A stretch of 28,031 bases of DNA from a virus (Duplodnaviria; Heunggongvirae; Uroviricota; Caudoviricetes), in IMG/VR virus record IMGVR_UViG_2740892212_000023; one strand, 5' to 3'. The notes under the pieces were generated by a model. It was not told where the DNA came from. It saw nothing but the letters and a program-made list of their open reading frames with translations, and did not search any database. Position 1 is the first letter of the stretch. Every line of letters starts with the position of its first letter. Positions 1,931-23,653 of the stretch are shown here, piece by piece. Made by a program: the position numbers and the translations under genes.

Positions 1931-2115
1931 ACGCCACAATTCAAACGATACCAGAGCTTCTTATCCAGACACGAGGCAATCAGACCGAAGTGGCGAGGAT
2001 GCTTTCCTGTGCAAGAGGAACAGTGCTCAAGTACAACCGAGACAGCAAAGGCGAGCGTCACGTAATAGTTAACGGCGTCCTGATGGTCAAACAGGGCAAG
2101 AGGGGAAGACGATGA
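1927..2115 (+). CDS. ninH: NinH protein
   Basis: 62-aa product …TIPELLIQTRGNQTEVARMLSCARGTVLKYNRD… resembles lambda NinH (helix-turn-helix-like). Confidence 0.75.
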   Translation: MNATIQTIPELLIQTRGNQTEVARMLSCARGTVLKYNRDSKGERHVIVNGVLMVKQGKRGRR

Positions 2116-2735
2116 GACTCGAAAGCGTAGCTAAATTTCATTCGCCAAAAAGCCCGATGATGAGCGACTCACCACGGGCTACGGCTTCTGACTCTCTTTC
2201 CGGTACTGATGTGATGGCTGCTATGGGGATGGCGCAATCACAAGCCGGATTCGGAATGGCTGCATTCTGCGGTAAGCATGAACTCAGCCAGAACGACAAA
2301 CAAAAGGCTATCAACTATCTGATGCAATTTGCACACAAGGTATCGGGGAAATACCGTGGTGTGGCAAAGCTTGAAGGAAATACTAAGGCAAAGGTACTGC
2401 AAGTGCTCGCAACATTCGCTTATGCGGATTATTGCCGTAGTGCCGCGACGCCGGGCGCAAGATGCAGAGATTGCCACGGTACAGGTCGGGCGGTTGATAT
2501 TGCCAAAACAGAGCAGTGGGGGAGAGTTGTTGAGAAAGAGTGCGGAAGATGCAAAGGTGTCGGCTATTCAAGAATGCCAGCAAGCGCCGCATATCGCGCT
2601 GTAACGATGCTAATCCCAAACCTTACTCAACCCACCTGGTCACGCACTGTTAAGCCTCTGTATGACGCTCTGGTGGTGCAATGCCACAAAGAAGAGTCAA
2701 TCGCAGACAACATTTTGAATGCGGTCACACGTTAG
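2112..2735 (+). CDS. Q: Late-gene antiterminator Q (lambda-type)
   Basis: 207-aa product that I recognise as essentially identical to lambda Q (MRLESVAKFHSPKSPMMSDSP…CRDCHGTGRAVD…CGRCKGVGYS…). Followed by the lambda pR' promoter sequence. Confidence 0.95.
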   Translation: MRLESVAKFHSPKSPMMSDSPRATASDSLSGTDVMAAMGMAQSQAGFGMAAFCGKHELSQNDKQKAINYLMQFAHKVSGKYRGVAKLEGNTKAKVLQVLATFAYADYCRSAATPGARCRDCHGTGRAVDIAKTEQWGRVVEKECGRCKGVGYSRMPASAAYRAVTMLIPNLTQPTWSRTVKPLYDALVVQCHKEESIADNILNAVTR

Positions 2736-2777
2736 CAGCATGATTGCCACGGATGGCAACATATTAACGGCATGATA

Positions 2778-2818
2778 TTGACTTATTGAATAAAATTGGG
2801 TAAATTTGACTCAAGAAT
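2778..2818 (+). promoter_or_regulatory. Late promoter pR' with qut-like initial transcribed region
   Basis: -35 TTGACT (2778-2783), 17-bp spacer, -10 TAAATT (2801-2806), matching lambda pR' as I recall it. The predicted +1 to +6 segment is AAGAAT (lambda: AACGAT), so a -10-like pause element is retained although the downstream sequence is new. Confidence 0.75.
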
Positions 2819-2877
2819 GGCAGATTTATATCCGTTCACATTCTTTCAGTTTTTACCCACCTCATCTTTAAGTTCTA

Positions 2878-2990
2878 AGCGCACTGACATGCGCATCATA
2901 AACTCGAGAGCACATAGGAATAGAGCCTGAGAAATATCGCTTTTGGCGACTTCTCTCGTGGTGATATTTCTATGTCAGCAGGCTCTAATA
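2878..2990 (+). repeat. Copy A of a duplicated ~110-nt leader element with conserved interleaved inverted repeats
   Basis: Shares the blocks AGCGCA…GCGCAT…CGAGAGC…GAGCCTGAGAAAT…GGCGAC.TCTCTCG…TTTCT.TG…CAGGCTC with 5518-5624. Lies directly upstream of the HNH gene start. Confidence 0.65.
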
Positions 2991-3006
2991 TCTATGTGGT
3001 TCGCCT

Positions 3007-3497
3007 ATGTTAAAACGTGAAGATGCATTGAGACTTTTTAATTACAATCCAGATACTGGAATTCTTACATGGAAGAATCCACCTCGGTCTTCTAGATTTA
3101 TCTATGGCGCTGTTGCTGGCTATAAACAAATGGATATCTGCAGGTAAAACTTTATGGAATGCGGCTATATGTCCATAGAATTGCATGGCTGATGGTTTAC
3201 AATGATTGGCCAACCGATGTGATTGACTATATTAATGGTGATAGGTCTGATAACCGGATAGCCAATCTTCGTGTTGTTACTAACACTCAAAACTCATGGA
3301 ACAGCAAGATGAGGAAAAACAATTCATCTGGTGTGAAGGGGGTGACTTTTAATTCTGCTGCAAACAAGTGGGTTGGAAGAATTAGGGTCAATGGTAAAAG
3401 GATTCATGTAGGGTGTTTTGACGATATCGAGGAGGCGAGAAAGGCAATGGAAAATGCCAGGATAAAATATCATGGTGAATTCTCCAGTATGGGATAG
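3007..3497 (+). pseudogene. HNH (HNH_3-type) homing endonuclease with C-terminal AP2 domain, interrupted by an apparent -1 frameshift
   Basis: N-terminal part in frame 1 (3007..3147: MLKREDALRLFNYNPDTGILTWKN…AVAGYKQMDICR*). The remainder is in frame 3 from 3126 (TNGYLQVKLYGMRLYVHRIAWLMVYNDWP…IDYINGDRSDNRIANLR…GVKGVTF…KWVGRIRVNGKRIHVGCFDDIEEA…YHGEF, to 3497). The frames switch inside the A-run at 3128-3130. The HNH signature reads DYINGD where the family normally has DHINGD. Confidence 0.7.
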
Positions 3498-3628
3498 ATG
3501 GGTTAATTCGCTCGTTGTGGTAGTGAGATGAAAAGAGGCGGCGCTTACTACCGATTCCGCCTAGTTGGTCACTTCGACGTATCGTCTGGAACTCCAACCA
3601 TCGCAGGCTGAGAGGTCTGTAAAATGCA

Positions 3629-3689
3629 ATCCCGAAACAGTTCGCAGGTAATAGTTAGAGCCTGCATAACGGTTTCGGGATTTTTTATT
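3629..3689 (+). terminator. tR'-like intrinsic terminator (end of the lambda 6S-RNA-homologous segment 3501-3689)
   Basis: Sequence 3501-3689 matches the lambda 6S RNA body from memory. Hairpin ATCCCGAAAC…GGTTTCGGGA followed by a T-run (3681-3689). Confidence 0.75.
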
Positions 3690-3690
3690 T

Positions 3691-3765
3691 GGGTCAGTCG
3701 TATAAAGGTCATTACGGAAGGCTGTTAACCTTCTTATCGTGGTTCGAGTCCACGCTGTCCCGCCA
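3691..3765 (+). tRNA. Candidate tRNA-Asn (anticodon GTT), possibly degenerate
   Basis: Hand-folded cloverleaf: acceptor GGGTCAG/CTGTCCC (one T·T mismatch), anticodon stem GAAGG/CCTTC with loop CTGTTAA, T-arm CGTGG-TTCGAGT-CCACG, discriminator G and encoded CCA. The D-stem is weak. Confidence 0.45.
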
Positions 3766-3770
3766 AATAT

Positions 3771-3846
3771 GCTGGTTTAGCTCCAATGGTAGAGCAGTCG
3801 CCTTGTAAGCGAATGGGTAGCGGTTCAAGTCCGTTAACCAGCACCA
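3771..3846 (+). tRNA. Candidate tRNA-Thr (anticodon TGT)
   Basis: Hand-folded cloverleaf: perfect 7-bp acceptor GCTGGTT/AACCAGC, D-arm GCTC-CAATGGTA-GAGC, anticodon loop CTTGTAA, T-arm AGCGG-TTCAAGT-CCGTT, discriminator A and encoded CCA. Confidence 0.65.
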
Positions 3847-4088
3847 TAACTGAGCCGTAGCCACTGGCTATCCTGAACTCATCAGTGATAGTTACGCTGC
3901 GGCCTTCTACACATGATCTTCGTGAAAGCGGGTGGCAGGAGGCTGCGCTAACAACCTCCTGCCGTTTTGCCCGTGCATATCGGTCACGAACAAATCTGAT
4001 TACTAAACACAGTAGCCTGGATTTGTTCTATCAGTAATCGACCTTATTCCTAATTAAATAGAGCAAATCCCCTTATTGGGGGTAAGAC

Positions 4089-5479: not shown

Positions 5480-5505
5480 AGCCCCGCATTCGCGGGGCTT
5501 TTTAT
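5480..5505 (+). terminator. Rho-independent terminator downstream of the lysis cassette
   Basis: Hairpin AGCCCCGC-ATTC-GCGGGGCT followed by TTTTTAT. Confidence 0.7.
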
Positions 5506-5517
5506 ATCTTAATTTCA

Positions 5518-5624
5518 CAGCGCATCTCACGCGCATATTAACGAGAGCCTTTCAGTAAGCGAGCCTGAGAAATGCCGTTATAGGTGGCGACCTCTCTCGG
5601 GCGGCTTTTCTGTGAGACAGGCTC
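5518..5624 (+). repeat. Copy B of the duplicated leader element, upstream of rha
   Basis: Same conserved blocks in the same order as 2878-2990, lying between the post-lysis terminator and the rha start codon. Confidence 0.65.
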
Positions 5625-5647
5625 ACTTTCTAAAAGGTAAAGACGCT

Positions 5648-6166
5648 ATGAATCATCAATTGGCTAATCTCGATTTCCGGGACATGGTGGTTGTTTCTGG
5701 TGATCGCGTGATCACAACCTCCCGCAAGGTAGCAGCTTACTTCGACAAGCAGCATCACCACATCATTCAGAAAATCGAAAAGCTAGACTGTTCGGATGAA
5801 TTTCTAACCAGCAACTTTTCGCGGGTTACCTATGAACACAAGGGTAATCAGTATGTTGAATATGAAATTTCCAAAGACGGCGCGATGTACATCATCATGT
5901 CGTTTACCGGAAAAAAAGCTGCCGCCATCAAAGAGGCGTTTATCAAAGCATTTAATTGGATGCGTGACAGGCTGATGGAGATGGCTCACTCATACCAAAG
6001 AGAGCACAACGAGTTAATGCTGGAGTTCATGAAGGAAAAGGATGTTGCCAGTATGTCAGGACGCTTGCTGAACCGCTGGGGCAGGATCAAAAAACCGCAA
6101 CTCATAGCAAGAATCGAAAGGCTTGAGCAGCAGGCGCAAATATCGATCCCCGGACTGCCAAAGTGA
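5648..6166 (+). CDS. rha: Phage regulatory protein Rha (P22 orf201-like)
   Basis: Rha-family N-terminal motif (…VVVSGDRVITTSRKVAAYFDKQHHHIIQKIEKL…). ATG 5648 is preceded by AAAGG; the ORF track's GTG 5612 extension is probably not translated. Same position as rha in P22. Confidence 0.8.
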   Translation: MNHQLANLDFRDMVVVSGDRVITTSRKVAAYFDKQHHHIIQKIEKLDCSDEFLTSNFSRVTYEHKGNQYVEYEISKDGAMYIIMSFTGKKAAAIKEAFIKAFNWMRDRLMEMAHSYQREHNELMLEFMKEKDVASMSGRLLNRWGRIKKPQLIARIERLEQQAQISIPGLPK

Positions 6167-23391: not shown

Positions 23392-23591
23392 GTAAAGAAT
23401 GTTGTTTCTGCGGCATTAGCGAATCAGACGCTGATCAAACATACATTTACTCTAAAGAAACAGGTCGGATGCTGTGTAGTGACTGCGTGTTGGACATCAT
23501 AAGATACAAGCATCTTGGATGTTCTGCCAGCATTAGCAATATAGGTGAAGTATATGAAGGGAAAGATATAACTGATAGAGCAGAAAGTTGA
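23388..23591 (+). CDS. Small Cys-rich protein (putative zinc ribbon), 67 aa
   Basis: Two CxxC pairs (CCFCG…CSDC). ATG 23388 overlaps the stop of the reconstructed arc frame. P22 has no gene between arc and ant. Confidence 0.45.
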   Translation: MSKECCFCGISESDADQTYIYSKETGRMLCSDCVLDIIRYKHLGCSASISNIGEVYEGKDITDRAES

Positions 23592-23653
23592 AGCCCCAAC
23601 TGCGGTAACAGTCAGGGCTTCGGTATCAACAAATCGTCTTAGGAAATATTGAC

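Follow-up and report, generated by a model that had tools for sequence, protein, structure and literature searches.

A family of pseudoknotted messenger RNA leaders that probably silences accessory genes of lambdoid and P22-like phages at translation

The tailed-phage genome of IMG/VR record IMGVR_UViG_2740892212_000023 (Caudoviricetes), analysed here over its full 28,031 nucleotides (nt; hereafter the window), carries similar leader sequences before an HNH endonuclease-like gene (copy A) and before rha (copy B), which raises the question of what a duplicated leader does in front of two different genes. An earlier note, made from the letters of the window alone, had described a ~110-nt element with two interleaved inverted repeats and proposed a cis-regulatory RNA, such as an attenuator or a translational control element, with a two-site protein operator or a mobile gene cassette as alternatives. 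Comparison with relatives indicates that both copies belong to an uncatalogued family of ~130-nt sense messenger RNA (mRNA) leaders with two to three pseudoknot pairings, which probably act in cis as portable translational silencers of accessory or selfish genes.

Local alignment of copy A with copy B gave 89 identities over 107 ungapped columns, or 72% when gap columns are counted. The alignment score of 57 compares with a mean of 15.2 (standard deviation 2.3, maximum 27) for 1000 dinucleotide shuffles and with a highest value of 26 in 1356 other windows taken from the two strands of the 28 kb; a chance similarity is not borne out and the copies are homologous, as had been proposed. The four repeat blocks of copy A lie exactly where they had been reported (CGAGAG at 2905-2910, CTCTCG at 2953-2958, GAGCCTG at 2923-2929 and CAGGCTC at 2979-2985) and recur in the same order of mention at 5542-5547, 5594-5599, 5561-5567 and 5618-5624 in copy B. 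The element itself is larger than ~110 nt, extending in both copies from a hairpin termed P0 to the start codon (2879-3009 and 5520-5650). A covariance model built from relatives (R1) identified exactly two copies in the window, at 5517-5656 (copy B, 141 bits, E 2.8e-33) and 2876-3017 (copy A, 91.8 bits, E 7e-21), with the next match at E = 0.63.

Relatives were gathered by pattern scans of IMG/VR and of a collection with one genome per species, and model R1 describes the nested helices of 85 members from phages and Enterobacterales genomes. Five helices, P0, P1, P2, P3 and P4, are present in conserved order up to the start codon, with compensatory changes in every one, so that the search for further copies and the covariance model suggested in the earlier note both gave positive results. 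Copy A is without a canonical P4 stem, its R1 match showing non-canonical marks at this helix. In the R1 alignment 95.8% of cells were paired, against 84.9% after shuffling and 38-47% with the partners slid; both sides changed in 30 of the 34 pairs, and the covariation score was 0.327 against 0.134, a value reached by 0 of 500 shuffles. A second model, R2, whose structure consists of P4 and two long-range pairings termed Pa and Pb, gave 86.5% paired cells against 67.4% (shuffled) and 36-48% (slid), changes on both sides in all 17 of 17 pairs, and a covariation score of 0.492 against 0.205 (0 of 500 shuffles).

Pa joins the linker just 5' of P1 to the apical loop just 3' of P4 and is formed in both copies of the window, and Pb joins the P0 loop to a 6-7-nt bulge between P3 and P2, with 7 bp in copy A and 6 bp in copy B. 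Because a MAFFT alignment placed Pa and Pb out of register between subtypes, model-guided alignments were used together with an alignment-free test, in which the longest complementary run between the two segments of each sequence was compared with that obtained for permuted partners. By this measure Pb comprised 6.52 contiguous pairs against 4.49 for permuted partners and Pa 6.76 against 4.93 (0 of 1000 permutations in each case), in 26 and 32 distinct duplex versions respectively. When subtypes were compared side by side, the bulge was always complementary to the P0 loop, as in UCUCAC/GUGAGA, CUGACAU/AUGUCAG, CUGACGU/ACGUCAG, CUAGCAU/AUGCUAG, UUCACC/GGUGAA, UUCGUAC/GUACGAA, UAGCAC/GUGCUA and UUCUCC/GGAGAA. 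The versions of Pa include CGAGAG/CUCUCG, CAUGAG/CUCAUG, CACGAG/CUCGUG, CCCGAG/CUCGGG, CCAAGAG/CUCUUGG, CGCAGA/UCUGCG, CACAGAA/UUCUGUG, CCACCGA/UCGGUGG, CGUCGA/UCGACG and CAUCGA/UCGAUG. The first of two leaders in the Stx phage Lyz12581Vzw (L121) combines a type B Pb with a type E Pa and P22-type P2 and P3; the Pa and Pb types thus recombine independently, which supports each pairing on its own. The interleaved repeats that drew attention to the locus correspond to real helices, Pa (CGAGAG/CTCTCG) and P2 (GAGCCTG/CAGGCTC), both with compensatory changes in relatives.

A third long-range pairing, Pc, joins the P4 loop, or the apical strand where P4 is absent, to the spacer between the Shine-Dalgarno (SD) sequence and the AUG, often with the AUG included. 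Sequences paired with their own partner segments over 5.37 positions against 4.53 for permuted partners (0 of 2000). The clearest compensations are UGUCGGU/ACCGAUG against UGUCGGA/UCCGAUG and GUACUUUU/AAAAGUAC against GUGCUUU/AAAGUAC; other versions are AUGGUGU/ACACCAU(G), GCGUAGUU/AACUACGC, UGGCG/CGCCA in phage P22 and UGCGG/CCGCA in C-type leaders, and in the window GGCGA/UCGCC (copy A) and UGGCG/CGCUA (copy B). Pc is supported but weaker than Pa and Pb. The SD lies inside the 3' strand of P1 at a constant 8-10 nt from the AUG, and its pairing is clear in copy B and weak in copy A. The earlier observation that no recognizable SD precedes the HNH ATG stands for copy A itself, where only GUGG is present, but not for the family, since the homologous position reads AAGG or AGGA in nearly all relatives. 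In copy A this position has changed along with its pairing partner, CACAU/AUGUG replacing CCUUU/AAAGG.

About 80% of the bases are paired and almost every position varies, the only conserved elements lacking a nested partner being the P4 loop GGCG and one or two G after Pa. The nested helices contain 130 G·U cells against 13 A·C mismatches, and the covariance model scores the + strand of the two copies at 141 and 92 bits against 27 and 21 bits for the − strand. It follows that the functional molecule is the sense (+ strand) RNA, since such asymmetry would not be expected of a double-stranded DNA site. The same figures bear on whether the leader could act as DNA. It might in that case be a promoter containing a palindromic operator or an operator with two protein sites, or mark the edge of a mobile cassette as a site of homing or recombination. 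The leader does form the conserved left edge of a slot with changing cargo, the type B leader showing 100% identity whether it is followed by rha or by the GIY-YIG-like gene of HK106; copy A resides within a precise 681-bp insertion; and some members have a TTYCAY box and an AT-rich stretch beside P0. Such a role is nevertheless very improbable given the asymmetries of base pair and strand and compensatory changes that preserve pairing and not sequence. Moreover, no sigma-70-like promoter, the one promoter type tested, was predicted within 2878-3006 or 5518-5650, and a −35-like box occurs in only 23 of 82 contexts. The two-site protein operator raised in the earlier note is disfavoured by the excess of G·U over A·C.

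No terminator-like hairpin followed by a U tract was predicted inside either copy, the one predicted terminator lying upstream of copy B (5480-5499), which argues against control of late transcription by attenuation or antitermination, on the model of a leader terminator or of put RNA. In phage HK022, the two put stem-loops just downstream of an early promoter make RNA polymerase resistant to termination; both the position of the present leader, in the late operon after the lysis genes, and its architecture differ. The location directly past a terminator, within a long operon controlled by antitermination, would suit such an element, and type B leaders do have a short U-rich run after the 3' strand of P3. 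However, this run is not conserved, with GAUAUUUCU and CUGGUUUCCU in other types; the upstream terminator is complete before the leader is made; and Q-modified polymerase, as established for lambda, reads through terminators anyway. Control of this kind is scarcely credible, and the attenuator version of the original proposal falls with the lack of a conserved terminator. Two further candidates were rejected: a leader peptide, the only internal ATG of copy B opening three codons that are not conserved in relatives, and a hammerhead-like CUGAGAA, which lies inside P2/P3 and gave no model match.

Either alternative RNA conformations or a pseudoknot had been envisaged for the interleaved repeats. 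Pseudoknot pairings are present, but the pairings need not be alternatives because none compete for the same nucleotides, and a single compact fold is more economical. This fold would consist of a long P1-P2-P3 hairpin, usually capped by P4, with the small GC hairpin P0 in front and the long-range pairings locking the whole. Connections between the strands are short (Pa adjoins both P1 and P4 directly, with 0 nt, and is separated from P3 by 1-2 nt) and the lengths of the possible stacks match, with ~20 bp for P1+P2 and ~17-18 bp for P3+Pa. A straight coaxial P1-P2-P3 rod was rejected, as it would place the partner strand of Pa ~29 bp away from a linker of 0 nt. The short connections and matching lengths point to two side-by-side stacks, P1+P2 and P3+Pa, which would be joined by a P2/P3/Pb junction at one end and a Pa/P1/P4 junction at the other. 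In this way the 3' tail leaving P1 would emerge beside the P4 loop, and as Pc demands just this placement, it lends independent support to the compact arrangement. Pa would serve as a clamp, holding the anti-SD strand, just 3' of its own 5' strand, beside the anti-start loop of P4, just 5' of its 3' strand. With the SD buried in P1 and the AUG in Pc, the entire translation initiation region would be paired.

Wherever annotation is available, the leader occupies a constant position, downstream of the lysis genes and upstream of the terminase genes or else immediately behind Q, and an intrinsic terminator is located no more than 70 nt upstream in 58 of 82 distinct contexts. The upstream terminators, together with the lack of a predicted internal promoter, imply that the leader is made as part of the read-through transcript of an antiterminated late operon, on which it would keep translation of the following gene low, in cis. 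A structured cis-regulatory RNA leader, as the earlier note preferred, is the favoured reading, given that both repeat helices covary, that the mRNA strand is the one under constraint, and that SD and start codon are paired; translational control is supported by this anatomy, and a role as cis-acting translational silencer or insulator is proposed with moderate confidence. It would offer a testable explanation for how lambdoid phages quiet potentially harmful cargo on read-through late transcripts.

Several considerations weigh against the silencer. Repression is deduced from the anatomy of the leader, and the compact arrangement from its connectivity. The covariation alignments are fitted by models to related sequences, such that the shuffle controls overstate significance, an effect which the alignment-free test and the slid controls lessen but do not remove. 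Some subtypes, for example the A-like leaders of Xenorhabdus, have a Pc of only 5 bp or none at all, and copy A, with P4 lost, a weak SD and a dead gene behind it, may no longer be functional. Finally, a plain hairpin would suffice to hide an SD, and the three extra long-range pairings hint at specific recognition or sensing.

This last consideration leads to a regulated switch, in which the same RNA would alternately bury and expose the SD and AUG in response to a factor shared by these phages or their hosts, be it a protein, a small molecule, temperature, processing by RNase, or an RNA acting in trans as in the IsrK system of Gifsy-1. Its architecture is far more elaborate than a hairpin hiding a ribosome site, and P1 is only marginally stable, with conserved mismatches and a duplex energy of only ~−5 kcal/mol in copy B. 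Pa is identical in the two copies of the window and Pb in the two copies of Lyz12581Vzw, which makes pairing in trans conceivable, and IsrK provides a precedent of alternative leader folds before an antirepressor gene. A host input is also suggested by a citing paper, by whose account IHF regulates rha and Rha blocks phage growth in IHF-defective hosts. On the other hand, the pairings share no nucleotides, whereas known switches use mutually exclusive pairings; the few conserved unpaired positions and the variation of nearly every helix position argue against a small-molecule pocket; no expression platform besides the ribosome site and no terminator are present; and no candidate effector is known. 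On balance a switch is considered unlikely. The same doubtful standing applies to the broader proposal of a new responsive RNA device, in which a signal would open or cleave a cage of three pseudoknot pairings enclosing the ribosome site, and so set when lambdoid and P22-like phages of the Enterobacterales express their antirepressor-like, nuclease and anti-defence genes. Candidate signals are a host or phage factor (the link between IHF and Rha toxicity, as that citing paper gives it), a metabolite or a partner RNA. Were the fold to respond to a signal, it would represent a new riboregulator class in very tractable model phages.

To collect the elements discussed above and their surroundings, the coordinates within the window are given in Table 1.

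Table 1. Segments of the two leader copies and neighbouring features of the window (positions in nt; SD, Shine-Dalgarno sequence)
Feature	Coordinates	Strand	Sequence or remark
Copy A leader RNA	2879-3009	+	P0 hairpin to ATG of HNH pseudogene; R1 match and alignment to copy B
Copy A P0 hairpin	2879-2894	+	GCGCA/TGCGC, loop CTGACA
Copy A Pb 5' strand	2884-2890	+	CUGACAU, P0 loop bases
Copy A Pa 5' strand	2905-2910	+	CGAGAG
Copy A P1 5' strand	2911-2918	+	CACAUAGG; anti-SD position; partner 2991-2998
Copy A P2 5' and P3 5' strands	2921-2938	+	UAGAGCCUG (contains GAGCCTG) and AGAAAUAUC
Copy A apical strand of Pc	2945-2949	+	GGCGA, complementary to spacer UCGCC 3001-3005
Copy A Pa 3' strand	2953-2958	+	CTCTCG, in apical loop
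Copy A P3 3' strand	2963-2971	+	GAUAUUUCU
Copy A bulge, Pb 3' strand	2972-2978	+	AUGUCAG (7 nt), fully complementary to P0 loop CUGACAU
Copy A P2 3' then P1 3' strand	2979-2998	+	CAGGCUCUA then UCUAUGUG; P1 part is the SD-equivalent position
Copy A spacer and start codon	3001-3009	+	UCGCC (Pc 3' strand); ATG 3007-3009
Copy B leader RNA	5520-5650	+	P0 hairpin to rha ATG; R1 141 bits
Copy B P0 hairpin	5520-5534	+	GCGC/GCGC, loop AUCUCAC
Copy B Pb 5' strand	5525-5530	+	UCUCAC, P0 loop
Copy B Pa 5' strand	5542-5547	+	CGAGAG
Copy B P1 5' strand	5548-5559	+	CCUUUCAGUAAG; anti-SD CCUU at 5' end
Copy B P2 5' and P3 5' strands	5561-5577	+	GAGCCUG and AGAAAUGCCG
Copy B P4 hairpin	5582-5593	+	AGGU-GGCG-ACCU
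Copy B Pc	5585-5589 with 5644-5648	+	Loop UGGCG with CGCUA; one G·U; takes in A of AUG
Copy B Pa 3' strand	5594-5599	+	CUCUCG, directly after P4; GG follows
Copy B P3 3' strand	5602-5611	+	CGGCUUUUCU
Copy B bulge, Pb 3' strand	5612-5617	+	GUGAGA, complementary to P0 loop UCUCAC
Copy B P2 3' then P1 3' strand	5618-5637	+	CAGGCUC then CUUUCUAAAAGG; SD AAGG inside P1 strand
Copy B start codon	5648-5650	+	After 10-nt spacer
Q	2112-2735		Upstream of PR'
Lambda-type late promoter PR'	2778-2806	+	HK446 counterpart annotated 'similar to coliphage lambda PR''
Insertion, 681 bp	2817-3497	+	62-nt lead-in, copy A and HNH-AP2 gene, inside PR'/6S/tR' unit
HNH_3 + AP2 homing-endonuclease-like gene (pseudogene)	3007-3497	+	Gene after copy A
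Lambda-type terminator tR'	3631-3687	+	CCCGAAAC...GUUUCGGG then U run
Intrinsic terminator ending lysis cassette	5480-5504	+	8-bp GC stem and T run; 15 nt upstream of copy B P0
rha	5648-6166	+	Gene after copy B; 519-nt coding sequence, same as in NEB10-beta prophage (L209)

Neither copy matched any family of Rfam 15, at the gathering threshold or in a permissive search up to E = 10, chance hits falling far below threshold; the families covered include C4 (RF01695), IsrK (RF01394), Alpha_RBS, hammerhead, twister, pistol and hatchet. Eight relatives, among them the P22, phi80-type prophage, Stx-phage and Xenorhabdus loci, likewise gave no Rfam match. A ~130-nt RNA in which every helix covaries has gone uncatalogued, although textbook phages (P22, a phi80-type prophage and Stx-converting phages) carry it and it is found in ~12% of complete E. 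coli genomes. The only earlier account of any part of the element that literature searches returned is that of P22F, an 89-nt read cluster of phage P22 confirmed by reverse transcription polymerase chain reaction and described in 2026 as having 'no known function' (PMC13397905). It maps within the leader of P22 rha, ending 6 nt before the ATG. This leader scores 58-80 bits with the covariance models and is a member of the family, with a P0 loop CCGCA and bulge UGCGG, Pa CCACCGA/UCGGUGG, P2 GCCUUUG/CAAAGGU, P3 AGGAUACCAG/CUGGUUUCCU and Pc UGGCG/CGCCA, which makes P22F a fragment of a family member. The ends of P22F cut through P1, consistent with its probably being a fragment of the leader. P22F thereby shows directly that the core of a leader of this family is present as stable RNA in infected cells, and itself gains a structural context; the original report proposed no structure, family or link to the leaders of other phages (PMC13397905).

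The accumulation of P22F in infected cells and vesicles also speaks for a role in RNA processing or stability, or for a small RNA acting in trans: a self-cleaving or RNase-recognized module would cut the late transcript into mRNAs the size of single genes or leave behind a stable small RNA with its own function. Several copies per phage before single changeable genes are found with prophage hammerhead ribozymes as well (PMC3088659), and the pseudoknotted fold recalls small ribozymes. Yet no Rfam ribozyme family matched up to E = 10 and no conserved unpaired core is present, while P22F ends inside P1 and after the SD, at no defined junction, so that it may simply mark a nuclease-resistant core. 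As conserved pairing of SD and AUG is not required of a pure processing signal, this explanation is regarded as distinctly unlikely. The hammerheads remain comparable as repeated structured RNAs before single non-constant accessory genes in long phage transcripts (PMC3088659), and differ in that the leader has no hammerhead core and no Rfam ribozyme match.

For the proposed translational silencer, a buried ribosome site is of a known kind, and what is new is the architecture, the breadth and the independence from the cargo. Several precedents place structured RNA at this position. The c4 antisense RNA of phages P1 and P7 (immI: c4-icd-ant) lies in the leader of an antirepressor operon, and its loops pair with the region of a ribosome site farther down the same transcript. 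It is a processed antisense RNA of ~77 nt, in contrast to the pairings within one continuous fold seen here, and the Rfam C4 model did not match either copy even at E up to 10. The E. coli alpha operon is controlled through a pseudoknotted translational operator bound by S4. This operator, together with those of rpsO/S15 and T4 gene 32, resembles the present leader in having pseudoknots at the ribosome site, but all are bound by the protein they encode in a feedback loop; the leader matched no Rfam operator, and because its cargo proteins differ, it is unlikely to be controlled by the product of the gene behind it. In some mRNA leaders, whether the 30S subunit can initiate is known to depend on pseudoknots at or beside the ribosome site (PMC3014915).

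The closest working precedent is found in T4-type phages, where the SD and/or AUG of e, soc, 49 and I-TevI are sequestered in read-through transcripts, and where structures before the free-standing mobE and segB have been shown or implicated in reducing translation initiation (PMC3014915). The likeness lies in the pairing of SD and AUG in a read-through transcript, which in the present case is a prediction backed by covariation, and in the use for nuclease genes that are costly if expressed, copy A and several relatives preceding HNH or GIY-YIG-like genes. The T4 structures are simple hairpins relieved by an internal late promoter, whereas the present fold combines five nested helices with two to three pseudoknot pairings, no internal sigma-70-like promoter is predicted, and the same leader serves many unrelated cargo genes. 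The closest biological analogue is isrK-orf45-anrP of Gifsy-1, in which an RNA fold keeps the message translationally silent (PMC4825925), likewise a structured leader beside Q and before an antirepressor-like gene. Identity with an IsrK-type leader was rejected, as no homology was found at the Gifsy-1 isrK locus: Rfam IsrK has no match in the window, and a search of the complete Gifsy-1 record with model R2 gave no hit with E up to 1. IsrK further differs by two alternative folds, a terminated trans-acting short isoform and an upstream open reading frame (ORF), none of which were seen in this leader.

The proteins encoded downstream of 174 leader instances fall into 11 clusters. Rha is the commonest by far, and the others comprise KilA-N with or without ORF11CD3, ANT/KilAC, HNH_3+AP2, HNH_3+HTH, T5orf172/MUG113 (GIY-YIG nuclease in the source records), Acb2/Tad1-like proteins and proteins without a Pfam match. 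In Xenorhabdus beddingii (L166 1144-1285) the leader precedes an 80-aa protein matching the Acb2/Tad1 hairpin domain (E 4e-14), a family of anti-CBASS and anti-Thoeris sponges, which indicates that the slot can hold anti-defence genes. The leader would also supply a natural, compact element for silencing genes at the level of translation.

Copy A entered the window together with its gene. The site of the 681-bp insertion is empty in HK446, mEp506, phiv205-1 and Kapi1, in which 2700-3900 of the window is matched as two pieces that are contiguous there. The insertion is flanked by an ATGG microhomology (2817-2820 and 3498-3501), ends exactly at the HNH stop codon, and is located a few bases past the PR' start and ~140 bases before the start of tR', so that the distance from PR' to tR' is ~870 nt, compared with ~190 nt without it. 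The gene itself, an HNH-like ORF with its ATG at 3007, is a pseudogene in the window. In L118 it is intact and encodes 163 aa; by comparison, the window copy has lost a single nucleotide from an A run near 3124, which leaves ORFs at 3007-3147 and 3159-3497, and its DHIN motif carries a His to Tyr change; in the relative L021 the HNH gene has a 320-bp internal deletion. The leader before it is intact in all three. From these comparisons, the leader travels with its cargo and copy A arrived with the HNH gene, which bears out in part the mobile gene cassette of the earlier note, as does the occurrence of the leader before many unrelated genes.

In lambda, PR' is constitutive and its transcripts end at tR' unless Q acts. 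The leader-HNH unit would consequently be transcribed all the time, and a translational block would be especially useful at this site. Silencing by the leader would also account for the harmless swapping and insertion of such genes, even into the PR'-tR' control unit. A −10-like hexamer in lambda induces the promoter-proximal pause needed for Q loading, and this hexamer seems to have been kept despite the insertion. At the left junction (2813-2821), within the part transcribed early, AAGAAUGG stands in place of the AACGAUGG of HK446 (L211 ~410-425). A cassette of the same kind with another leader subtype occurs in Klebsiella phage RothC (L205 1453-1601), where a P22-type leader and a 'homing endonuclease' are located between Q/tRNA-Ile/tRNA-Arg and the holin gene.

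Copy B matched 157 records of the phage collection, upstream of Rha, KilA-N, GIY-YIG nuclease or 'DNA-binding' genes, and 641 of 5426 complete E. coli genomes (~12%), none with an RNA annotation. In the NEB10-beta prophage (L209) a copy 100% identical to copy B stands before rha. The DH10B lineage carries phi80 lacZΔM15, and the locus is therefore presumed to be the phi80 late region. For copy A, blastn against the phage collection gave no match, and leaders of its type were recovered by the pattern scans only, in IMG/VR (L021, L046 and L118) and in Xenorhabdus and Photorhabdus genomes. The hosts in the scans comprise Escherichia, Salmonella, Klebsiella, Enterobacter, Hafnia, Yersinia, Serratia, Pantoea, Rahnella, Pectobacterium, Proteus, Providencia, Morganella, Photorhabdus, Arsenophonus and Xenorhabdus, and by these matches the leader is widespread in phages of gut and insect bacteria. 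Xenorhabdus holds many copies per genome, with at least five loci in X. stockiae and three on one chromosome in X. bakwenae. The Xenorhabdus copies are often on very short contigs, which suggests that leader and antirepressor-like cargo are part of a repeated element that breaks assemblies.

Two leader copies, each before its own gene, are found in the phage of the window, in Lyz12581Vzw and in the NEB10-beta prophage, and tandem slots with a leader each seem to be common. The second copy in the NEB10-beta prophage (L209 5092-5214) is more diverged, is without P4 and precedes a 242-aa hypothetical gene. In Lyz12581Vzw the second, diverged copy (L121 1647-1789) precedes an 'antirepressor' between lysozyme and Rz-like genes, and the other precedes rha. 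Decayed copies were also observed. In Brenneria (L192 2277-2412) P0 and the 5' strands of Pa and P1 have been replaced at a recombination break, and in Pantoea (L179 4508-4649) a copy is without a start codon and also without P0 and the 5' strand of Pa.

An A-rich linker separates P0 from the Pa 5' strand in copy B. In the 20 nt upstream of P0, a TTTCAC/TTYCAY box was found, often directly before P0, in 23 of 82 contexts, for example at 5514-5519 of the window and at 1452-1457 of the P22 locus (L204). In type B leaders this box resembles the P0 loop UCUCAC, and in Stx2a phages without P0 (L122), UUUCAU could stand in as the partner of the bulge GUGAGA.

The surroundings of both copies identify a P22-like phage late region under lambda-type late control. 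Past PR' the order is two tRNA genes, lysis genes, a terminator, rha, terminase, portal, scaffold and coat. The two tRNA genes lie directly after tR' (3691-3762 and 3771-3843), and their homologues are annotated as tRNA-Thr and tRNA-Asn in mEp506 and Kapi1. An Rfam scan of the window at the gathering threshold found these two tRNAs and the sar RNA, and nothing else. The sar antisense RNA (23586-23652, − strand, 74.5 bits) adjoins the ant gene, which confirms a P22-type immI region in the same phage.

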